This document shows, piece by piece, positions 16,385-27,950 of a DNA stretch of 27,950 bases. The first letter of the stretch is position 1. Every line of letters begins with the position of its first letter. Under the pieces are notes generated by a model. It searched no databases. It saw only the letters and a list, made by a program, of their open reading frames with translations, and was not told where the DNA came from. Origin of the DNA: a virus (lineage: Duplodnaviria > Caudoviricetes); IMG/VR virus record IMGVR_UViG_3300037458_000735, positions 1-27,950 of that record; one strand, given 5' to 3'. The position numbers were made by a program, and so were the translations under genes.

Positions 16385-18349
16385 ATGCCAATCACCGCCG
16401 ATACCCTGCGCTGGTATCAATCCGAGCGCATGACAGACGAGGACGATGGCGGAGGCCAGATGACCGGCGTCGAGATCATCCCGGGCGACGAAAACCAGAT
16501 CTTCGATGACCTGTCCGACGTGGACAGGGCCGCGGGCGATGTCAGCCTGCGCAAGGTCTATGCCGCCGTGGCCAGCGGGGATGACGACAAGTATCTCGAC
16601 GCCGGTGTGGTCGTCTTCCGCGCCCCGGCTGACCCCGACGTGTCCGTGACAATCTTCAGCACGGGCAGTTACTACGACGAGCGGCTGGCCCTGCAAACCA
16701 GCATGGAGTCGCAGGTCGTCAAAGGGGGCATCTACCCCGGCTATCTGTGGGGCGACCATATCGTTGGGCTCAGGGCGGTGACGTTCTGGGCGCGCCTGAG
16801 CACCAAGGTCCCGGTGGCAGGGGATCGGTTCGCCTTGGAGAACCGCGTCAACGGGGCCCTCTCAGGGTCGCAGTTCGTGTGGGTTACGCGGGTGACAGAG
16901 CAGGTGGTTGATCGTGTGGACCAACAGCGGGGGCAATACCAAGTGCGCCTGATAACCTGCGAGATCGCCGAACCCCTGCGCTACGAGTTCAAGGGGCTCG
17001 AACCGACATACCACGACCCCACGACCGTCAGCACCAATGGCACCCTGACCTTTGAGACCCGGTACAACCCGGATTCGGTCGCCATCACCGGCATCGCGCC
17101 CCTGGCAGTGGCCGCGGAGGTGGGCGACTACACCGTCCAGGTAGACAGCATTTACTCGCCGCTGATCCCGACCGCATTCGCCGAAACAGCGATCCCAGAC
17201 GCCAACCCCGGCGGAGGGGCCGCAGCATTGGTCTCGGCCGGCGATGACGACGCCACCATCACCTGGACTACCACCCTTGATGCTATCAAGCCCGGGGCCT
17301 CGCTATTCGCTGGCGGGCCCGTGCTGCCAGGAACACTTAGCATCACCGTGTCCGGATCGGCCATCACGGACCAGGGCGGGGTGCTGCTGATGTCCGGGAC
17401 CGACATCGGCGCCATCGACTACGGAAACGGGGTCATGGTCTGGAACAGTGCCTGCCCAGCGTTCAGCACGGCACTCAAGACAATCACCTATACCCCGGCC
17501 GCACAGCCGCTGCGCGTGGCGGATACCGCGCGCCTCTGGGTCACGCTGGAAAACCGGGGATTCGTCTGGGTGCTGACCCTTGCCCCCATTCCGGCTCGGA
17601 AGTCGCTCCGGGTCTCCTACCGCGCCAACAACGAGTGGTATACGCTGATCGAGCGAGGCGACGGTATCCTAAAAGGAGCAGATTCCAGTTATGGGTCAGG
17701 GACTTTGGTCTACGAAACCGGGACGGTGACGATCACGACCGGCGCACTACCGGACCCAGACTCCGAGATCCTCTTCGCCTGGGGGACCAACATCGCCTAC
17801 ACCGCCCGCGGGGGCTCCGCCGTCGATCCGCTGGTGGTGCGAGGGAAGACCGCGCATCCACAGGTGGCGCCATCGACGGTCAGCGTGACGTGGTCTGGCG
17901 GCAGCCTGACGGACGACGGGGCTGGGGTATTGACAGGGACCGGCGGAACCGGGACCATCGAGTATGCCTCAGGGGAATGGACCGTGACCCCCACCACCGT
18001 GCCAGCCAAGGGGACCGAATTCACGCTGGAATACGACTACGGGCCTGCACTGATCGAATTGTTCAGCCAAAACGAGCTCGTTCCAGACGGGTTCGGCAAT
18101 CTGAATCTGATGCTCGACAACCCGGTCCAGCCGCGATCGCTCAAGGTGAGCTTCACGGTGGGAAGGCCCGCAAGTGCGAGCATCAGTGCCGTGAGCGTCA
18201 GTCGCAAGGGGGAGGACAACGGATCTGGCGCCGTCATCATCCCGCTAGGGAACAACGGCACGGTCAACTACGCCACGGGGGAAGTCACGTTCAACCCCAC
18301 CACGACGGAAGATGTGGTGGTCCCGGTCTTTGGTCTAGTGGAGGTTTGA
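16385..18349 (+). CDS. Large tail-tip structural protein, N-terminal part (B3-like)
   Basis: SERMTDEDDGGGQMTG...FDDLSDVDRAAGDVSLRKVY and repeated DDGxGxL...GxIxYxxG units. Confidence 0.75.
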   Translation: MPITADTLRWYQSERMTDEDDGGGQMTGVEIIPGDENQIFDDLSDVDRAAGDVSLRKVYAAVASGDDDKYLDAGVVVFRAPADPDVSVTIFSTGSYYDERLALQTSMESQVVKGGIYPGYLWGDHIVGLRAVTFWARLSTKVPVAGDRFALENRVNGALSGSQFVWVTRVTEQVVDRVDQQRGQYQVRLITCEIAEPLRYEFKGLEPTYHDPTTVSTNGTLTFETRYNPDSVAITGIAPLAVAAEVGDYTVQVDSIYSPLIPTAFAETAIPDANPGGGAAALVSAGDDDATITWTTTLDAIKPGASLFAGGPVLPGTLSITVSGSAITDQGGVLLMSGTDIGAIDYGNGVMVWNSACPAFSTALKTITYTPAAQPLRVADTARLWVTLENRGFVWVLTLAPIPARKSLRVSYRANNEWYTLIERGDGILKGADSSYGSGTLVYETGTVTITTGALPDPDSEILFAWGTNIAYTARGGSAVDPLVVRGKTAHPQVAPSTVSVTWSGGSLTDDGAGVLTGTGGTGTIEYASGEWTVTPTTVPAKGTEFTLEYDYGPALIELFSQNELVPDGFGNLNLMLDNPVQPRSLKVSFTVGRPASASISAVSVSRKGEDNGSGAVIIPLGNNGTVNYATGEVTFNPTTTEDVVVPVFGLVEV

Positions 18350-18350
18350 C

Positions 18351-20015
18351 ATGGGTGGGATTGCAGCACCGCTGTACGATGGCCGCTGGCGAAACATTTC
18401 GACGCCGCCGCCGCAGCAAATACTGCGGTGGACGGGGCAGCAGACCGTCAGCACGCAACTGACCATCCAAACTATCCCGGGCGTGAAAGTCGAGTATCGC
18501 CCGGCCGGTGGCCTGAACTCTGCCACAGAGACCATCACCCTAGACACGATCCATCTCGACCTGACCAAGGAGGTCAACGAGACCATCGTGCCCGGGTCAG
18601 CGCGCTTCCGCTTCGGCGGGTCCACCTACCAGCACACTGCTGGCGCCCTGTACCGCGACCCGAGCCCAGCCACCGGGGCCGGCACCCAGTCAGGGAGTCT
18701 CGACGCCGCCACAGGCCGGGTCCTGCTGACCCAGTGGACGGCAGGCCCCAACACCGTGACACTGGACGCGCTGACGACGCAGATCGGGGGGCAGCCAATC
18801 GGAGAGGCGGTCTTCCGGACAGCCGCGAGCCCAATCAAGCCCGGGGCCCTCCAGATCCGGTGGACCTTGGTATCAGGCGACATCATCAGCAAGGTGGTCG
18901 GGCAAAGCGGCATCATCGAAGACGCAGACGCCACCATCTTGGTGGACTGGGCCAGGGGCGTGATCGCCATCCGGTTCGGCCTGTGGCGGGAGGACGCCGA
19001 CCTTACGCCGGAGGAAAAGGAGGAACCTTGGTACGACCCGGGCAGCGTGGTGGACATCGACGGCGTGGACATGATCTGGCAGACCAAGGTGGTCCAGGCT
19101 GACAGCCTGATCTACAACGCCGTGGCGACCACCATGCTGCCCCCAGACAGCAACCTGCTGGGGATCGACGCTGCCCGCCTTCCGCCAGACGGCAAGGCGC
19201 TGATCTACCGGGTTGGGATGCTGGCACTGATTCACCACACCGACAGCCTGGCCCAAGCCGAGCTGTTGGCAGGGGAGGTGATCGATTGCGGCCGGCTTCG
19301 GCTCTATCGCGTGGTGATCGAGGATGCCAACGGGCTGCGCCTGATGCCGGACCTCTACACCGTCAACCGGGAGCTTGGCACCGTCACGATGGCCGACCCC
19401 CTGGATCTAGGCGCGTATGAGGCCCCCTATACCGTCAAGCACACCGTCGCCGACCTTCAGCGGGTGCGCGACACCGACATCAACGGGCGCTTGACCTTCC
19501 TGCGCCCGGTCTCGCACGAGTACCCGGCAGACGGGGACAGCTACGTGTCCGGCATGCTCTACGTGGGCACGCTCCAGGGCCGCTACAGCAAGCTGTTCAA
19601 GCAGTCCACCTGGACCGGGGTATGGTCGGATGCCCTGATCGGTAGCGCCCCGCTGGCGAGCTTCAACGACGCCCTCTATCCCATCGAGGTGAGCAACGCC
19701 GGGGCCTATCAGGACCGCATCCTGGTGAGGTTTACCAGCGCCAGCGCCTTCGAGGTCATCGGCGAGGCCCTGGGCCTGCTCGGCATCGGCAACATCAACG
19801 CCGACTGCGCCCCGATCAATCCGCTGACGAACCAACCATACTTCACCATCCCTTACCAGGGCTGGGGCGGTGGCTGGGCCGCCGGCAACTGCCTACGCTT
19901 CAACCTACAGGCCGCCTGTTACCCGGTCGATTGCGTGCGGGCGGTGCAGCCTAGCGAGCCGACCGGACTTCAGGACAGCGTCGAGCTTCTGCTCGTCGGT
20001 AACGTGGACGCATAA
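18351..20015 (+). CDS. Large tail-tip structural protein, C-terminal part (B3-like)
   Basis: LLGIDAARLPPDGK and APINPLTNQPYFTI...GWGGGWAAGNCLRFN. GGAGGT RBS precedes the ATG. Confidence 0.75.
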   Translation: MGGIAAPLYDGRWRNISTPPPQQILRWTGQQTVSTQLTIQTIPGVKVEYRPAGGLNSATETITLDTIHLDLTKEVNETIVPGSARFRFGGSTYQHTAGALYRDPSPATGAGTQSGSLDAATGRVLLTQWTAGPNTVTLDALTTQIGGQPIGEAVFRTAASPIKPGALQIRWTLVSGDIISKVVGQSGIIEDADATILVDWARGVIAIRFGLWREDADLTPEEKEEPWYDPGSVVDIDGVDMIWQTKVVQADSLIYNAVATTMLPPDSNLLGIDAARLPPDGKALIYRVGMLALIHHTDSLAQAELLAGEVIDCGRLRLYRVVIEDANGLRLMPDLYTVNRELGTVTMADPLDLGAYEAPYTVKHTVADLQRVRDTDINGRLTFLRPVSHEYPADGDSYVSGMLYVGTLQGRYSKLFKQSTWTGVWSDALIGSAPLASFNDALYPIEVSNAGAYQDRILVRFTSASAFEVIGEALGLLGIGNINADCAPINPLTNQPYFTIPYQGWGGGWAAGNCLRFNLQAACYPVDCVRAVQPSEPTGLQDSVELLLVGNVDA

Positions 20016-21886: not shown

Positions 21887-23947
21887 GTGAGCAACGATCT
21901 CCGCCTTGGGCTTCACCCGGGCGGGAACGATCTGTACCTTGGGTACACGGGAGCCCCTGACAACGGGGTCCTCCTGCTGGCGCGCACCTCTGCCCCGCGA
22001 GCCCTGTTCCGGGCAGCCACAGCGCGCACCGTCCTAACAGCCCGTACCAAAGGCCCGACAGCCGTGCTGCGGGCCGCCTATGATCCCAACCTGCTCTCAG
22101 ATACCGTCCGCGCAACTACCGGGCGCTGGGCCGGCGCTGGGAGACAGCATCACGGCTGCCTATCTGTCCAGACGGATGCGCGCCCACTGCCCCAGGAAGC
22201 CGCCTGTCGCTGGCAGGAAGGCCGCCGGGTGCCAGGCGGGGCAGTGGCAGCATGGGCCGGCGCAGAGCCCGCGGCAGGGGAAAACGAGGCCGCCTGGCGC
22301 GTTGCGACGATGGAGTGTGGCACAACGGGATCTGCCTGGGCAGGTGCGCCACGGGTGGCGGATTCCGCTCGGGCCGCATGGCAGGAGGGCGACGCTACAG
22401 CAGGGCCAGCCCATGCCACCTGGTGGCGCGGTCTGCCTCTGGTGGATCTACCGGCATCGCCGCTGCACAGGGACGCCGGGCGCGAGCTATCGAGTGTCCG
22501 TGACCGCTTCCGGCACGGACGCCTGGTGCAGGACCCGTGCATCGAGAACTCCTGGAACGATGGCGCCTGGGTCGGCTACGTGCGGCGCAAGCCCGTGCCC
22601 TGGGTCCGCCCGCCGCGCCCCTGGGTCCCGCGGGGGAACGACCTGCACCTGTGCAATCTGGAGCCCGGCAACGATTTCCACCTCGGGTCCATCTGTCGCT
22701 GTCGCATCCCGCGACGCAGGAGCTACCACGTGCAACACAGCATCGCCGTCGTCCGCCTGTCCGACTCCGCGGAGGTTCCGACCGAATCCCTGTCCCTGAG
22801 CCTGGATGCCGACTCCTGGGCCTGGACCTGGTCCGCCGGCCTGCTGGGGCCGGATGCCTTGGCGCTGGTCCTGCCGTCCGAACTGGGCGAGCCCGTGACC
22901 CTGGAGGCCGCCATCGACGGGCACGTCTGGCACCTGGTGGTCGAAGACTGGCAGGAGGACCGCTCCTTCGGCTCCCGGTCGGTCAAGGTCTCCGGCCGCG
23001 GACTATCGGCCTGGCTCGGGCAGCCCTACGAGCCGGCGGCGAGCGGGTCCCTGGCCAACGCCCGCACCCTCAACCAGGCCATCGAGGAGTTCCTGCCGCT
23101 TGGCAGCGGCTGGACCATCGACTGGGCCGACGATACGCCGGACTGGCTCCTGCCGTCCGGGTCCTGGTCCTGGACCAACCAGGCGCCGATCCAGGTCATT
23201 CATGAGGCCGTGCAGGGGGTTGGGATGGTGGCGGTCCCTGGAGCGACCGCCAAGACTCTGACCATCCAGCCCCGCTACCCGGTCCTGCCGTGGGACTTCG
23301 CGGCGGCCACCCCGGATCTGATCATCCCAGATTCCGCCATCCTGAACCTGAGCCGACGCCAGGCGGTGCCGACCCAGGCCAATGCGGTCTATGTCCATGG
23401 CGGCGACTCTGGCGGTATCCTGGCGCGGGTCTGGCGCTCCGGCACGGCCGGAGACCGACTGGCGCCGACGGTCTCCGACTCGCGCATCACCCATGCCGAT
23501 GGCGCCCGCCTGCTGGGGTCTCGCCTGCTCGCGGCCCAGACACAGCAGCCCGAGATCCGGTCGGTTACGATCCCGTGTGGCGGCGTCTTCTGCCTGGCCA
23601 GCATCGGGCAACTGGTGTCCATCACCATCGGGGCCAGCGACATCCGCGGCATCGTCAACGCCGTGTCCATCAGCGCCCAAGGCGGCACGGTTCGGCAGAC
23701 GATCACCATCGGCGAGGAGACGCCCAACGTGTGGGCCATGTGGCGGAGCCTGCTACCGGCCTCGCCGCTGCTCTGGGGCCAGGTCCTGGCCGTGCACGAG
23801 GACGGCACTCGCACCGTCAGCATGGCCGGCGGCGGGACGCAGCGGGTGCGTGGGGATGGGTCAGCCGGGGCGGCTGTGTGGGTCAGGGCAGGGGTGATTG
23901 AGGGCCAGGCCCCGCAGTTACCCGTTGAGGACATCGAAATTCCATGA
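21887..23947 (+). CDS. Tail-tip/baseplate hub-like protein with Trp repeats and a fused C-terminal small domain
   Basis: 686 aa, last gene of the late operon. Motifs LSLSLDADSWAWTWSA, TIQPRYPVLPW and ANAVYVHG. Confidence 0.65.
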   Translation: MSNDLRLGLHPGGNDLYLGYTGAPDNGVLLLARTSAPRALFRAATARTVLTARTKGPTAVLRAAYDPNLLSDTVRATTGRWAGAGRQHHGCLSVQTDARPLPQEAACRWQEGRRVPGGAVAAWAGAEPAAGENEAAWRVATMECGTTGSAWAGAPRVADSARAAWQEGDATAGPAHATWWRGLPLVDLPASPLHRDAGRELSSVRDRFRHGRLVQDPCIENSWNDGAWVGYVRRKPVPWVRPPRPWVPRGNDLHLCNLEPGNDFHLGSICRCRIPRRRSYHVQHSIAVVRLSDSAEVPTESLSLSLDADSWAWTWSAGLLGPDALALVLPSELGEPVTLEAAIDGHVWHLVVEDWQEDRSFGSRSVKVSGRGLSAWLGQPYEPAASGSLANARTLNQAIEEFLPLGSGWTIDWADDTPDWLLPSGSWSWTNQAPIQVIHEAVQGVGMVAVPGATAKTLTIQPRYPVLPWDFAAATPDLIIPDSAILNLSRRQAVPTQANAVYVHGGDSGGILARVWRSGTAGDRLAPTVSDSRITHADGARLLGSRLLAAQTQQPEIRSVTIPCGGVFCLASIGQLVSITIGASDIRGIVNAVSISAQGGTVRQTITIGEETPNVWAMWRSLLPASPLLWGQVLAVHEDGTRTVSMAGGGTQRVRGDGSAGAAVWVRAGVIEGQAPQLPVEDIEIP

Positions 23948-24014
23948 TGTGCTGGGCCTGTTCGCGCCTCCCGATGGCGTCATGCGATGACATACGAAAC
24001 TCACACTTTGCGCG

Positions 24015-24107
24015 TAAGCCTGTGTTTCTCCGGCATATTTAACGCCCTTTCACGGCGGCGACCGGGGTTCGAATCCCCGTGGGGACGCCAATTCGATCAG
24101 GCAGTTA
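24015..24107. promoter_or_regulatory. IHF-like sites flanking the att core
   Basis: GATCAGGCAGTTA (24095-24107, +) and AAACACAGGCTTA (24015-24027, -) each match WATCAANNNNTTR with two mismatches. Confidence 0.35.
24043..24090 (+). mobile_element. att core: 3' 48 nt of tRNA-Glu(TTC), attP-like
   Basis: CGCCCTTTCACGGCGGCGACCGGGGTTCGAATCCCCGTGGGGACGCCA covers the anticodon arm, T-arm and CCA of tRNA-Glu. The 5' half (acceptor strand, D-arm) is absent, and the site lies next to an integrase. Confidence 0.92.
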
Positions 24108-24117
24108 TGCCACTTTG

Positions 24118-24142
24118 ACCCGGGCTCTCGCCCGGGTTTTTT
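24118..24142 (+). terminator. Intrinsic terminator downstream of the tRNA fragment
   Basis: ACCCGGGC-TCTC-GCCCGGGT followed by a T-run. Confidence 0.85.
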
Positions 24143-24215
24143 CTATCACACGCTAGCACAGGTCAAGGGGCCGTCACGCCCTCGACAACCGCCGCCCGGT
24201 GGCCCGTTCCATGAC

Positions 24216-24794
24216 CTATACGGCGTGCTTGCCGATGACCAACTGCCGCTCGACGATGTCGATACAGGCCGTCAGGGCAACAAGCTCCTGAAGGTTCACC
24301 AGCACATGCTGGCCGTGGTCGAGGTCTAACTGATGGACCCGTTCCAGGGCTGGGATTGGGTCGTAGGCATCGGATAGGCGCCGGACCCAGGCCTCCAGGT
24401 ATTCCCGGTTGTGCTCGAAGGCCGCAAGGCTCAAAGCATGGGCCTTGCGGTTGATGGCGCGGCGGACCTCTGGGGTGAGAGGATCGGCCGGCTCGGGCAG
24501 GAGCTTGGGCCAGCCGGACTCCACCGCCTTGGGCTTGGCCGGCTCGGGCACGCGGAAGTAGGCATCCTCCAGCCGCTCGAAGACCTCCCACGCCTGATCG
24601 GTGTCGAGCATCTTGGCGTGCCGGGCCGCGCCGCGTTCGGTCCAGAGGAGCAAGACGTTGGCGTTCTGGGTGATTTTCACGGCGTGACTTTTAGTCACGT
24701 CGCGCTTGAACTCACGCAGATCCGGGCCTTCCAGCCGGATGAAGTGCTTGCCGGCCTCGAAGCGGTCCTGGTTGCGGACGGGCGGCGTGGTCAA
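24216..24794 (-). CDS. ORF6N-domain (antirepressor-type) protein, apparently N-terminally truncated; possible pseudogene
   Basis: RNQDRFEAGKHFIRLEG...LLLWTERGAARHAKMLDTDQAWEVFERLEDAYF is the ORF6N signature. The first helices are missing and only a TTG start is available. Confidence 0.7.
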   Translation of the reverse strand: MTTPPVRNQDRFEAGKHFIRLEGPDLREFKRDVTKSHAVKITQNANVLLLWTERGAARHAKMLDTDQAWEVFERLEDAYFRVPEPAKPKAVESGWPKLLPEPADPLTPEVRRAINRKAHALSLAAFEHNREYLEAWVRRLSDAYDPIPALERVHQLDLDHGQHVLVNLQELVALTACIDIVERQLVIGKHAV

Positions 24795-24811
24795 GCGGCC
24801 CCCGGGCGCGC

Positions 24812-25837
24812 TCACAGGTCTAGCCTGGCAATGGCGTCTCGGAGCGTACTTGGGGCCAGGTGGGCATAGCGCTCGGTGGTCTTGCTGCTGGCGTGCCCGG
24901 CCAGGACCTGCACGGTGCGCAGGGGCACCCCAGCTTGGACGAGGTGAGCGCAGTAGGTATGGCGCAGGCAGTGGATGTGCCCGTCGAGGTCGCAGCGGTC
25001 GAGGGTGCGGACGAAGGCGCGGCTTAAGGATGTCTGGGCGACCTGGGGCAGGACGTAGCCGAGCTTCGGATTGTCGGGTGGAGACAGGGCCTCCAGGGCC
25101 TCGCCAGCGCCGCGGCTGATGGGGATGGACCGCCAGTGTCCGGACTTGGTGCGAGCGCCTTCTTCGCTGCGGATGCCGATCTCTTCGCGGCCCACGTCGC
25201 GCCATTGGAGTTGGAGTCCTTCGGTCCGGCGCAGCCCTGTGTTGGCGAACAACTGCCAGCCCCAGCGGTAGCGGCGGTGCAGCTCGCCGTCGGCCGCTGT
25301 GGTGCAGGCGGGGATGGTCAGCTCGGCGGCGTAGATCAGGGCGAGTTCCTCCCGGCTGTACCAGCGCGGCGGGCGGCTGGCGAGGTCGCGCGGTGGCTTG
25401 ACCTTGGCGATTGGGTTGCGCTGGATGAGATCCCAGGCCACCGCGGCGTTGAGGCAGGCTTGCAGGGTGCGCAGCTCTTTGACGACGGTTCCGGCCGCGG
25501 CGGCTTGAAGGCGGCGGGCCTTGTAGTCTTCGACCTGGGTCCTGGTCAGGGCCATCAGTGGGCAGGCACCGAAGGCGGGGATGAGGTGGCAGCGCAGGAT
25601 CTGCTCGACGCGGTAGTAGCTGTCTGGGTACTCGTGGCTGTGCCAGGTGGCGTAGCGTGCGGCCCAGGCGCCGAAGGCGGGCCCGGCCGCGGCGATGACG
25701 CCTAGGCTGGACTCGCGGGCGACCCGCGCCGCCTCGGCTTCGGCCTCGGTAACTGCACCGAGCGAGCGGCGGACCTGACGGCCATCTTCGACCCACGAGA
25801 GGTACCACTGCCGGCCCCGCTGGTACTTGCCCGCCAT
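24812..25837 (-). CDS. int: Phage tyrosine integrase
   Basis: TGLR, TKSG, HCLRH, LAGH and RY catalytic residues, plus an N-terminal arm-binding-type beta segment (WYLSWVEDGRQVRRSLG). No IntI-specific insertion is visible. Confidence 0.95.
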   Translation of the reverse strand: MAGKYQRGRQWYLSWVEDGRQVRRSLGAVTEAEAEAARVARESSLGVIAAAGPAFGAWAARYATWHSHEYPDSYYRVEQILRCHLIPAFGACPLMALTRTQVEDYKARRLQAAAAGTVVKELRTLQACLNAAVAWDLIQRNPIAKVKPPRDLASRPPRWYSREELALIYAAELTIPACTTAADGELHRRYRWGWQLFANTGLRRTEGLQLQWRDVGREEIGIRSEEGARTKSGHWRSIPISRGAGEALEALSPPDNPKLGYVLPQVAQTSLSRAFVRTLDRCDLDGHIHCLRHTYCAHLVQAGVPLRTVQVLAGHASSKTTERYAHLAPSTLRDAIARLDL

Positions 25838-25995
25838 GCTCTGTCTGCGGCCTCCTCGATGTCTGCCAGGCGGTAAAGGATAGCTCCCATGAGTGCAACC
25901 GGCGGGATGCCGGCCCCAGGGCCTCGGGTGCGCAGTTCCTCTGGGGTCAGGCCCAGCAGGGATGCTGCGGTGGCTTCTGGGATGTAGGGGAGCAT
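25702..25995 (-). CDS. xis: Excisionase-like HTH protein
   Basis: IPEATAASLLGLTPEELR...GIPPV..GAILYRLADIE is a MerR/Xis-type wHTH, and the gene overlaps the int start. Confidence 0.7.
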   Translation of the reverse strand: MLPYIPEATAASLLGLTPEELRTRGPGAGIPPVALMGAILYRLADIEEAADRAWRASTSGAGSGTSRGSKMAVRSAARSVQLPRPKPRRRGSPASPA

Positions 25996-25998
25996 TCT

Positions 25999-26039
25999 GG
26001 ATAACAATGCTAGGCAGATCTGTCTATTACCAGTTAGAC
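25999..26039 (+). other. Short terminal recombination site of the cassette array (degenerate attC or attI-like)
   Basis: GGATAAC-AATGC-TAGGCAGA/TCTGTCTA palindrome-TTACCA-GTTAGAC. GTTAGACC (26033-26040) is the exact reverse complement of GGTCTAAC at the next attC. Confidence 0.55.
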
Positions 26040-26726
26040 CTACAGCGCCAGAACCTGCTGGCACATCCGGTTGGCGGCGATCTCGCAGTATCGTTCCTCG
26101 CGCTCGATCAAAACGGCGCGCTTTCCAAGGTCCATGGCGGCGCGCCCCGTGGTTCCGCTCCCGGCCCATGGGTCCAACACCGTCGCCACGTCCCCAGCCA
26201 GCGACAGCGCCCACTTGATGACTTCAAGCGGCTTCTGGGTCGGGTGCTCGCGGTTCTCGCAGCCCTGGCGAAGCATACCGTTCCACATGTGCCTCTTGAT
26301 GCGCAGAGCGCACCCCAGATTGTTCCATGCCATCTCGCCATCTGCGAAGTCCCCGGTGTTTTCCTTGTCCCACACCAGGGGACCCTTGCAGGGCGGCAGG
26401 GCGTAGTAGTTCCCGCCAAAGATGATCTGCTTGTCGCATAGGGATCGTGCAAGGGCCAACGTCCAGTCCTGCACCGGTTCGTTGTCCCAATCGCTTTTCC
26501 CGTAATCGGTTACCGGGGCCTTGTTTGAAGATCCCCATTTTCCTTTGCTGGCTCCGATCCCATATGGTGGGTCAGTCAGCAGAAGGTCAAACCGTGGCAA
26601 CATCGGCATAATGTGGCGGCAGTCCCCGTGGTAAATCGTGATTCCGTGGTCCTCGAAGAAAGGTCTAACAAGCGGCTCAAAAGCGAGGCGCGCATCGGCC
26701 TGGTGCTCAATCTTCGGTGTCGTCAT
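26040..26726 (-). CDS. Orphan DNA amino-methyltransferase (N6/N4 family, beta-type motif order)
   Basis: TDPPY motif IV, HPTQKP and VLDPWAGSGTT motif I. No cognate nuclease is adjacent. Confidence 0.92.
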   Translation of the reverse strand: MTTPKIEHQADARLAFEPLVRPFFEDHGITIYHGDCRHIMPMLPRFDLLLTDPPYGIGASKGKWGSSNKAPVTDYGKSDWDNEPVQDWTLALARSLCDKQIIFGGNYYALPPCKGPLVWDKENTGDFADGEMAWNNLGCALRIKRHMWNGMLRQGCENREHPTQKPLEVIKWALSLAGDVATVLDPWAGSGTTGRAAMDLGKRAVLIEREERYCEIAANRMCQQVLAL

Positions 26727-26756
26727 GGCGCGCCCGCTTTAGCCTTTTCGTTAGGC
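26663..26756 (+). mobile_element. attC-like site 1 (94 bp)
   Basis: R'' GTCTAAC ... R' GTTAGGC. The left arm GGCT[C]AAA[A]GCG[A]GGCGCGC pairs perfectly with GCGCGCCCGCTTTAGCC once three extra bases are removed (G,T,T on the bottom strand). Confidence 0.88.
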
Positions 26757-26758
26757 AT
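26723..26758 (-). CDS. 11-aa coupling mini-ORF MPNEKAKAGAP inside attC1
   Basis: The ATG directly follows the TAG of the upstream gene, and its TGA overlaps the MTase ATG (ATGA). Confidence 0.45.
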   Translation of the reverse strand: MPNEKAKAGAP

Positions 26759-26977
26759 CTAAAGCTCGTCTCCAAGCGAGATCTGAACCTTTACTCCGCG
26801 GTCCGTGGCGTCCTCATCCAGGCACCATGTCACCGACAGCACGGGGCGCAGAATGTCCCGGAAGACGCAGTTATCGCCTTGCCGCGGAACATGGTATAGC
26901 CGGCGCAAGGCATGCATGCGCGGCTCCCCGTCAACGTAGAATTCCACCTTTGCCGTCCGATCCAGATCAGTGTACAT
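26759..26977 (-). CDS. Hypothetical protein (72 aa), cassette B
   Basis: Strong RBS GAGGTG before the ATG. The ORF fills the space between attC1 and attC2. Confidence 0.75.
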   Translation of the reverse strand: MYTDLDRTAKVEFYVDGEPRMHALRRLYHVPRQGDNCVFRDILRPVLSVTWCLDEDATDRGVKVQISLGDEL

Positions 26978-26980
26978 TGC

Positions 26981-27082
26981 TCACCTCAACAAAAATTGCC
27001 TAACATCAGCCTCAACCGCGACCCGCGTTACGGGCGCCGGTGCAGTCGGGAGGGGATCTGTGGGCGCGGGCGCGTTAGGCAT
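26981..27082 (-). CDS. 33-aa leader ORF traversing attC2
   Basis: MPNAPAPTDPLPTAPAPVTRVAVEADVRQFLLR starts 4 nt after the upstream TAA and stops 3 nt before the next ATG. Confidence 0.4.
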   Translation of the reverse strand: MPNAPAPTDPLPTAPAPVTRVAVEADVRQFLLR

Positions 27083-27092
27083 GACGTTAGGC
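26998..27092 (+). mobile_element. attC-like site 2 (95 bp)
   Basis: R'' GCCTAAC ... R' GTTAGGC. GCCT[C]AAC[C]GCG[A]CCCGCG pairs perfectly with CGCGGGCGCGTTAGGC, leaving three extra bases. Confidence 0.9.
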
Positions 27093-27341
27093 CCCTATCC
27101 TGGCGGGGCATGTCTGAAAAACCGCCAGTGGCGGGACCATCATCACCGATCTCATCGGATCGTTGGGTGGCGCCAGGCGGCGCGCACATCGCTTGCACTC
27201 AGGCATCCAGTCTCCGCACTGCTGCATGCCTGCGCACCTCGCTACATCGTCCGGAAGCCTAACATCAGCCTCAACCGCGACCCGCGCCACGGTGTCGGCG
27301 ATTTGCTGTACGGTCACAGGTGGCGCGGGCGCTTTAGGCAT
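27087..27341 (-). CDS. Cys-rich small phage protein (84 aa), cassette C
   Basis: LPDDVARCAG..C....C..C....CP core. The ATG is inside attC3, just before the stop of the upstream gene, and the TAA lies in the R' box of attC2. Confidence 0.65.
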   Translation of the reverse strand: MPKAPAPPVTVQQIADTVARVAVEADVRLPDDVARCAGMQQCGDWMPECKRCARRLAPPNDPMRSVMMVPPLAVFQTCPARIGA

Positions 27342-27351
27342 GACGTTCGGT
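27257..27351 (+). mobile_element. attC-like site 3 (95 bp)
   Basis: R'' GCCTAAC ... R' GTTCGGT. The first 30 nt are identical to attC2. The 20-bp arm has one mismatch and the same three extra bases. Confidence 0.88.
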
Positions 27352-27561
27352 TGCCTTGGCCGCAAATTCACCTAGCAGCCTGCCCCATGCCAGCAGCCCG
27401 CGCTTACGGTTCCCGCCGTTGATTTTCACCAGCAACGCAACCTGCTGGTATTCAGGCCACAGAGCCTTTTCAGAGAGCCAGTCTCCGCTAGGCATCCGCA
27501 CCACGCCGTTCATGTGCACGCGAATCTGTCCGCGCTTTAACCTTTGCGTTAGCTCCAACAA
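27334..27561 (-). CDS. Hypothetical protein (75 aa)
   Basis: AGGAG RBS before a TTG start. The stop codon lies inside the right arm of attC3. Confidence 0.6.
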   Translation of the reverse strand: MLELTQRLKRGQIRVHMNGVVRMPSGDWLSEKALWPEYQQVALLVKINGGNRKRGLLAWGRLLGEFAAKATERHA

Positions 27562-27806
27562 ATGCGGTCTCCTACAAATGGCAAACCGTGCACCGCGATG
27601 AACCAGCTACGCATGTGCACGGCATCACGGAATCCGTCACGCACTGCCTCATCGTCGTCGCTGAAGTCCTCACTGATTTCGATCCTTGTGACGCTCTCGC
27701 AGATCGCTTGCCGGATCTCACGCTGCTTGCTCCGGTACGGTGCCCCGACCCAAACGCGCAGCGACAGACGTTGGCCTGGCCTGATCTGGTTGCGGCGCGG
27801 CGGCGA
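27549..27806 (-). pseudogene. ASCH/PUA-like gene lacking its 5' end
   Basis: Translated by hand: SPPRRNQIRPGQRLSLRVWVGAPYRSKQREIRQAICESVTRIEI...AVRDGFRDAVHMRSWFIAVHGLPFVGDRICWS. An in-frame TGA at 27807-27809 precedes it and there is no start codon at its 5' end. Confidence 0.6.
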
Positions 27807-27948
27807 TCAGGTCGGCATCGGCCTTGGCGCTGGCGTTCGAGGGGTGCGGCTCTGGCTCCTGGTCGTCTGTGTCTGAACGCTTCCAGCCGATCCAATCTGG
27901 CAGCTTGCTTGGGTGCAGCAACCAGAGATGGCGCATGTTGGCGTCGTT
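27718..27948 (-). CDS. C-terminal part of a hypothetical phage protein, 5' end beyond the window
   Basis: The frame is open from the window edge (NDANMRHLWLL...WIGWKR). Its tail runs out of frame into the ASCH remnant. Confidence 0.5.
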   Translation of the reverse strand, partial: NDANMRHLWLLHPSKLPDWIGWKRSDTDDQEPEPHPSNASAKADADLIAAAPQPDQARPTSVAARLGRGTVPEQAA

Positions 27949-27950
27949 GA

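Follow-up and report, generated by a model that had tools for sequence, protein, structure and literature searches.

The virus record IMGVR_UViG_3300037458_000735 (27,950 nt, about 60% complete according to CheckV), analyzed over its whole length and called the window here, carries an array of small genes separated by hairpins that resemble the attC recombination sites of integrons. On the + strand, genes for terminase, portal, head, and tail proteins are followed by the 3′ segment of a tRNA gene. After this segment, an antirepressor fragment, an integrase gene (int), a small xis-like gene, and the small genes of the array are located on the − strand. With the gene order tail-attP-int, the window presumably represents an excised temperate phage. 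The features are compiled in Table 1, in which + denotes the attC top strand because the covariance model described below matches the sites on the − strand.

Table 1. Positions and properties of the array, its flanking sites, and the neighboring integration genes
Feature	Position	Strand	Remarks
attP core	24043..24090	+	The 3′-terminal 48 nt of a tRNA-Glu gene; probably targeted by the phage Int
Phage tyrosine integrase (Int)	24812..25837	−	341 amino acids; not IntI; PHROG 1, PF00589, N-terminal SAM-like domain
xis/AlpA-like small gene	25702..25995	−	Overlaps the int start; label from position and conservation
Terminal docking site (site 0)	25999..26039	+	Inverted boxes GTCTATT at 26022-26028 and 25999-26005; G|TT crossover at 26033/26034
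Cassette 1 gene, orphan N6/N4 DNA methyltransferase	26040..26726	−	PF01555, PHROG 67
attC site 1	26663..26756	+ (top), recombining bottom strand −	46.5 bits, E 4e-10, z −3.25
Site 1 leader	26758-26723	−	11 codons; stop overlaps the methyltransferase start
Cassette 2 gene, 72-amino-acid protein	26759..26977	−	Own ribosome-binding site; 8 homologues, 62-81% identity
attC site 2	26998..27092	+	46.1 bits, E 6e-10, z −3.59
Site 2 leader	27082-26981	−	33 codons; ends 3 nt ahead of the cassette 2 start
Cassette 3 gene, 84-amino-acid Cys-rich protein	27087..27341	−	Start and first 28 codons inside site 3
attC site 3	27257..27351	+	28.5 bits, E 2e-5, z −4.68; right end GTTCGGT
Cassette 4 gene, 5′-truncated	27334..27513	−	Family of about 90 amino acids; stop and cassette 3 start overlap
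Half attC site, L′ and R′ arm only	27529..27554	+	Repeat family D3; no model match; z +0.9
Open frame without a 5′ start codon, ASCH-like	27549..27803	−	Stop inside the half site

The core of the array is formed by three palindromes, whose coordinates and lengths, as given in an earlier note on this DNA, were confirmed. Each of them starts with RYYYAAC, and this left end pairs with a right end containing GTT. The ends described in that note were thus found insofar as all three sites keep GTT, but the right end of site 3 departs from GTTRRRY. Three extra bases in the left arm indeed occupy identical places, namely 16, 20, and 24 on the top strand, and a stem of 6 bp separates the first of them from the last. 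Read on the bottom strand, they are G, T, and T in site 1, again as described before, and G, G, and T in sites 2 and 3. According to PMC5027507, attC sites have an extrahelical G at position 16, a T at 23/24, an optional base at 20, and a 6-bp stem, and the extra-base positions of all three sites agree with this rule. The central spacer, which had been called unpaired, is so in site 1 but largely paired in sites 2 and 3, with three Watson-Crick pairs, one G-T pair, and one bulge.

Folding of the bottom strand yielded z values for the three sites that exceed chance (Table 1). A covariance model was trained on 18 attC sites, all of them chosen by our own detector in the chromosomal integrons of a single bacterial family, and the window was scanned with it without filters. 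This bacterially trained model matched the three palindromes on the − strand only, everything else remained at or below 10.4 bits, and the next match had an E value of 1. The detector itself returned exactly these three sites from the window and none from 1.148 Mb of shuffled viral DNA. The earlier assignment to integron attC anatomy was upheld, and, judged by anatomy, fold, and model scores, the three sites are real attC sites.

An attC cluster that has no integron integrase (CALIN) requires at least two clustered attC sites, as stated in PMC9024848. In the window, three sites are located within 690 nt, and no intI is found nearby on the contig, which stops 600 nt past site 3. The array is a CALIN by these features, in a backward, phage-type variant: all cargo genes are located on the attC bottom strand, opposite to bacterial cassettes, and none has the canonical arrangement, in which the gene occupies the attC top strand and ends ahead of the attC site or at it. 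The earlier statement that the sites separate single small genes was correct with respect to one-gene units, but it missed the gene orientation and the location of two gene starts inside the hairpins. The methyltransferase start codon at 26726 and the first approximately 21 codons are part of site 1. The closest relative of this methyltransferase (67% identity, locus L022) has neither an attC site nor the site-encoded N-terminus of about 20 residues, and a relative with 66% identity resides in the array of a phage with an IntI relative (L396). In the case of the Cys-rich protein, the stop codon is the TAA of the R′ box of site 2. Two proteins, P0132 and P0133, have only the site-encoded N-terminus in common with it, their bodies being unrelated, and P0130 and P0131 share more. 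Gene 4 has 20 homologues, and in most of them the match begins at residues 22 to 51. Among the cargo earlier described as phage-like (orphan methyltransferase, Cys-rich protein, ASCH-like frame), the ASCH-like frame is bounded only by the half site, and the ASCH designation is no more than a lead (Atlas 0.89, with the family on 23% of the members, and no Pfam match).

Every site is crossed by reading frames, and from their arrangement we infer that the leader frames may act as a translational relay. Alternatively, the hairpins might be RNA-level elements, signals for translation or processing, instead of recombination sites. They do occupy the coding strand, on which their folding is best, and they contain start codons as well as leader frames. 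An Rfam search assigned no family to the sites and gave one chance match, on the tRNA part. An RNA function also leaves unexplained the extra bases at 16, 20, and 24, as well as two findings treated below, namely the fit between a left end and the right end of the site before it and the changes of cargo at G|TT, so that this explanation is most improbable.

The array terminates toward int in the docking site, which touches the stop codon of the methyltransferase gene. Its position is that of attI in IntI-bearing phages, with 5 of 6 positions in the inverted arm. It was not filed as attI because the position and the arm geometry are of the attI type but the sequence is not. The covariance model gave no match to it, and an interpretation as a folded mini-attC was rejected due to a z value of −0.3 and the absence of the extra bases.

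If a cassette enters via a G|TT crossover, its left end should be complementary to the right end of the preceding site. This match to the preceding site is exact for all three complete cassettes of the window. At site 1, the left end is complementary to GTTAGAC of the docking site at every base and has one mismatch to its own right end; that of site 3 fits the right end of site 2 perfectly and has two mismatches to its own. The same relation was evaluated in 125 distinct phage cassettes (two from the window), which came from arrays gathered with two patterns (80 stretches with the second one) and with an IntI search. A perfect fit to the preceding site was found in 94 of them and to the own right end in 41, while random pairing of these cassettes produced 38 perfect fits on average and 51 at most in 5,000 shuffles. 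The end-complementarity test is silent on which hairpin travels with a gene, and comparisons at attI-type sites decide this question. A direct comparison of hairpins and genes contained one full-length pair, and the partial pairs lean to the hairpin at the 5′ end of the gene, with two counterexamples. A ten-site backward array (L011:1808-5970) displays eight consecutive exact end matches with six different right-end sequences, and it contains a duplicated cassette in which the 5′ hairpin stayed with the gene.

Sister phages of the window were found in wetland metagenomes, in three runs that contain 91 to 95% of the sampled words of 24000-27950; one of these runs may be the source of the window. 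In contigs of all three runs, the xis-like gene and the docking site are common, and the contigs depart from the window at 26036/26037, which is 3 to 4 nt past the G|TT of the docking site. There, the cargo is without homology. The contigs rejoin the window at the left end of a site-1-like hairpin (three runs), a site-2-like hairpin (two runs), or a site-3-like hairpin (one run). They represent sister phages with other first cassettes and not excision products because several bases differ from the window. The variation of related phages at G|TT, which had been suggested as a check, was thus encountered from the G|TT of the terminal site onward. A joint between 26755 and 26999 was set aside, with 26 letters only on the short side.

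Backward arrays are also present in other phages. In phage cassettes, PHROG families were matched by 36 of 123 longest open reading frames (ORFs) of the bottom strand and by 1 of 118 of the top strand; in bacterial cassettes, the matches were 3 of 8 on the top strand and 1 of 9, a Phd/YoeB pair, on the bottom strand. The window's own ORFs were omitted from these scans. Assignment of orientation by ORF coverage (39 bottom, 18 top, and 57 unclear of 114) or by tblastn was too noisy and was replaced. An IntI scoring above the curated cut-off occurred in 3 of 49 array-bearing viral records, for which 50 of about 75 candidate loci had been submitted. Among the 13 of these records with a completeness of at least 90%, 2 contained IntI and 11 contained none above the cut-off. 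In the three IntI-positive records, intI is at the docking end and on the same strand as the cargo.

An alignment search starting from these three IntI proteins led to relatives in 112 viral contigs, of which 80 loci were kept, without scoring them one by one against the IntI model. The attC bottom strand was the intI strand in 148 of 149 attC matches (58 of the 80 loci scanned). A second tyrosine recombinase was located within about 350 nt of intI in 20 of the 80 loci, and a motif ending in AAT-N4-G|TT within 260 nt of intI in 63 of the 76 loci with upstream sequence. Near-identical platforms carried unrelated first cargo in 12 of 30 pairs, with the divergence 3 to 7 nt after the G. The layout of the window is that of these IntI-bearing phages minus intI. 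As further observations, viral contigs that encode IntI relatives are numerous among the loci L341-L420, where a conserved attI-type motif occurs in two sequence subtypes and the first cassette varies among near-identical phages. The 43-kb element L283 (G021) is complete and has terminal repeats, IntI, a second recombinase, a large primase, a backward array, and a docking site with a spacing unlike that of the others. Arrays without IntI, also backward and upstream of xis-int, are those at L147:2306-4090 and L074:7239-8890. L147 belongs to the genome of Mizugakiibacter sediminis, and its array ends in a site that resembles the attI-type motif by eye; it is a possible experimental model.

These data are probably best explained, as far as sequence comparison can indicate, by an array of a temperate phage without an IntI of its own, the one-gene units of which would have been assembled, and would still be swapped, by an IntI acting in trans. 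This enzyme may come from another phage or from the host. The attC bottom strand would fold, and IntI would cut at G|TT. The mobile unit, consisting of a gene and the hairpin at its 5′ end, would leave by excision or enter at another attC site or the docking site. Since the cargo points toward int, a leftward early transcript would read it without a Pc promoter, and a newly captured gene would come last, just before xis-int. Ribosomes would be kept moving across the sites by the start codons and short leaders in the hairpins, in any gene order. Most likely, the array is a backward phage integron whose intI, formerly placed between the docking site and xis-int, was lost.

The recombinase next to the array was examined as the possible enzyme. 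It was already named a phage Int in the earlier note, which holds: against the IntI model TIGR02249, it reaches 43.6 bits with a cut-off of 265, and only the model positions 237 to 301 match. A complete integron would contain an IntI integrase, and a profile search with TIGR02249 yielded none in the window contig, approximately 60% complete as it is. The xis-like gene had no PHROG, NCBIfam, or Pfam match and is kept ahead of int in relatives. A tRNA 3′ segment adjoins int, so that the features of a phage tyrosine integrase with a tRNA attP are present, together with the Int domains. The tRNA-Glu label is a reading of the TTC anticodon, and ARAGORN found no whole tRNA. At attP, loose contig ends run into the tRNA 5′ half, and the depth jumps above 1000. 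Likely, the adjacent Int only integrates the prophage at the tRNA-Glu gene. If this Int, together with Xis, recombined the hairpins instead, the array would be a cassette system independent of IntI. It occupies the place of intI in integrons, and two distant relatives with 35% identity (L074, L147) have four-site backward arrays upstream. On the other hand, the IntI-specific region is unmatched since the TIGR02249 match is confined to the positions mentioned, Int has an attP of its own, and 12 of the 13 loci of its closest relatives (54 to 75% identity) contain no attC match, the remaining one a single match. There is very little probability left for the adjacent Int as the cassette recombinase.

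As another possibility, the phage may encode its own intI in the approximately 40% of the genome that was not sequenced. This agrees with the completeness estimate and with the common occurrence of phage-borne IntI. A 33,359-nt contig with the Int of the window exists. Against this, the IntI-bearing phages examined have intI immediately beside the docking site, as the motif near the gene illustrates, and in the window the xis-like gene starts 38 nt from G|TT. An intI elsewhere in the genome is improbable, albeit less so than the adjacent Int as the cassette enzyme.

With respect to an IntI supplied in trans, IntI proteins above the cut-off were present in 85 of 151 genomes of the Chromatiaceae family, which also holds several of the close Int relatives; a host-supplied enzyme is plausible for this reason. 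An exact copy of the attP core was found in 2 of these 151 genomes, in a tRNA-like context, and both genomes contain a partial IntI match above the cut-off. None above the cut-off occurred in five metagenome-assembled genomes with close Int relatives. The earlier proposal of a host IntI acting in trans is plausible in view of the family genomes, but the enzyme need not be that of the host because an IntI of their own is encoded by many phages of this layout. Many IntI frames of the family are, as a side observation, 460 to 510 amino acids long and exceed the 315-position model; that of L444 has two SAM-like domains.

A chromosomal array with at least 19 sites in genome G154 contains two adjacent backward one-gene cassettes (L444:10777-11594). 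One of them is 51% identical to an early gene beside an Int relative (L107) and 36 to 44% identical to genes in five other viral loci. This single case supports a traffic between the phage and chromosomal integron pools, the direction of which is putative, and it fits the link between integron and phage gene pools that had been put forward before: backward cassettes, one of them phage-type, in a bacterial chromosomal integron. The first cassette of the G154 array encodes a reverse transcriptase.

Several results weigh against swapping by an IntI in trans. The docking site scores −1.1 on a matrix of 37 phage attI-type sites, the training sites of which score 2.1 to 20, and ranks 7 of 465 GTT in the window; its pattern was found 0 times elsewhere in viral contigs of IMG/VR and in 420 loci. 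A paired spacer hampers IntI1, as the passage concerned in PMC5027507 indicates, and this applies to sites 2 and 3. At least one of the 18 training sites of the covariance model (L444:10777-10836) belongs to a backward cassette itself. The far end of the array is decayed, with a half site and a truncated gene 4. The contigs with alternative cargo stem from related phages, and their sequence between departure and rejoining is unread. Excisable, shufflable cassettes, as claimed earlier, agree with the cargo of the sister phages differing at G|TT, but precise loss of a cassette was found in no contig of the wetland runs, in which assembly drops rare variants. The family of sites 2 and 3 had two matches in 301 host-family genomes, neither detected as attC. 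The search for the attP core covered one family, so that the host of the window is a candidate family. Since the contig is 60% complete, an intI could lie in the unsequenced part.

Some of these points would also fit a fossil array, built by an ancestor with intI and now inert to IntI, in which homologous recombination between the similar hairpins, serving the general recombination system of the phage as linkers, generated the differences of the sister phages. The decayed far end, the docking site off the attI profile, the paired spacers, and the lack of a precise excision product in the contigs would all be expected in this case. The left ends of sites 2 and 3 have 30 identical bases, enough for homology-driven exchange, and CALINs are viewed as degraded integrons in PMC9024848. 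However, the sister-phage break is located 3 to 4 nt after G|TT in cargo without homology, all three sites retain the extra bases and fit the site before them exactly, and the 11 of 13 near-complete array-bearing records without IntI are many for a transient decay. A fossil array is rather doubtful, although a more serious competitor than the other alternatives.

Concerning the far end, a deletion at the half site likely removed the loop and left arm and also the 5′ part of gene 4. An assignment of 27495-27554 as a degenerate fourth attC (5 of 7 match to site 3) was rejected because the left arm is gene 4 coding sequence, and also because of the nonsignificant fold and the missing model match. 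In 27549-27950 (−), the ASCH-like frame is startless and overlaps the end of an upstream gene, two properties that suggest a second deletion at this end. The same sequence is present in contigs of the runs X1 and X3.

Returning to IntI-mediated swapping, the array has to be compared with known systems. Clustered attC sites in phages have been published by Qi et al. 2023, who counted 17 CALINs among 10,705 genomes of phages, noted methyltransferases as cargo, and showed that 5 of 6 such phage sites were recombined by IntI1 (PMC9892861). The array resembles them in the clustered attC sites without intI and in the orphan DNA methyltransferase cargo. In phage TJE1 from that study, the two sites found by the model have top-strand genes in the canonical manner, whereas all genes of the window are on the bottom strand, start in or beside the hairpin, and form the early-operon end at xis-int. 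The main text, as far as accessible, mentions divergent attC directions in one phage and does not describe an inversion as a rule. For MW202573, a phage of the same study, positions 24000-34630 yielded no match with the covariance model.

Canonical integrons, as presented by Nivina et al. 2016 (PMC5027507), share the attC anatomy, the bottom-strand asymmetry, and the G|TT crossover footprint. The window, in contrast, is without intI or a matching attI, and its genes are antisense to the top strand, so that a Pc-type promoter would not read them. In the “reverse” integrons with an inverted integrase (PMC13323075), the orientation is likewise unusual, but there intI is flipped relative to attC, whereas the phage arrays keep the usual intI-attC orientation and have flipped cargo genes. 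An intI on the attC top strand was thus not observed, neither in the window contig, which has no intI, nor as a feature of the related phages. A gene facing the integrase end also results from cassettes inserted via the top strand (PMC5027507, Fig. 1D), in which the gene and attC flip together; in the window, each gene is flipped relative to its own attC, and this over the whole array. Self-promoted toxin-antitoxin cassettes face the integrase end as well, and the example seen (L452) is one exception within an otherwise canonical array. Successive genes linked by reading frames that cross attC hairpins are known; those of the window run on the bottom strand and can supply a start codon and an N-terminus. 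A literature search, with subscription papers outside its coverage, returned no description of backward phage cassettes. Phage CALINs are already published, and the backward form is without a description found within the scope of this search.

Swapping of small early genes, which makes temperate phages mosaics, is usually credited to homologous or illegitimate recombination, and the origin of integron cassettes is a long-standing question. A site-specific route for the exchange of early genes would be new. More generally, and with somewhat less than even confidence from comparison of the loci, temperate phages might run an integron gene pool of their own, with early genes kept as backward cassettes and attC serving as the translation start. 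Phages without IntI might keep a docking site outside the known attI family and borrow IntI from co-resident phages or the host, and cassettes might enter the chromosomal integrons of hosts. A borrowed IntI would make phage and bacterial integrons share genes. The formation of cassettes is open to comparison because the methyltransferase exists without attC (L022) and fused to it in frame, and one attC family heads different bodies. If true, integrons would obtain new cassettes from phages, and the way in which cassettes are first made would become approachable. For this locus alone, the advance is moderate because phage CALINs are published and the activity of the array is putative; the IntI-bearing phages are the better experimental model.

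In IMG/VR, close relatives of the array were found neither by Int alone (0 loci) nor by the site-2 pattern (0). A blastn comparison of the region with GenBank phages gave short matches only, mostly to the methyltransferase. No sigma-70-type promoter was detected in 23900-27950, and an early promoter would lie past the contig end. One contig of an RNA run covers 151 nt of the methyltransferase gene, which does not count as evidence for expression. Between int and attP, a 5′-truncated, antirepressor-like frame is located at 24216-24791 (−). Contigs of run X1 link 24091 to 24827/24858, the stretch between being unread, so that this frame is likely absent or replaced in sister phages. Finally, two adjacent ORFs of 654 and 554 amino acids at 16385-20015 (+) correspond to the two halves of PHROG 6128 (1200 positions) and represent a split gene or a frameshift.

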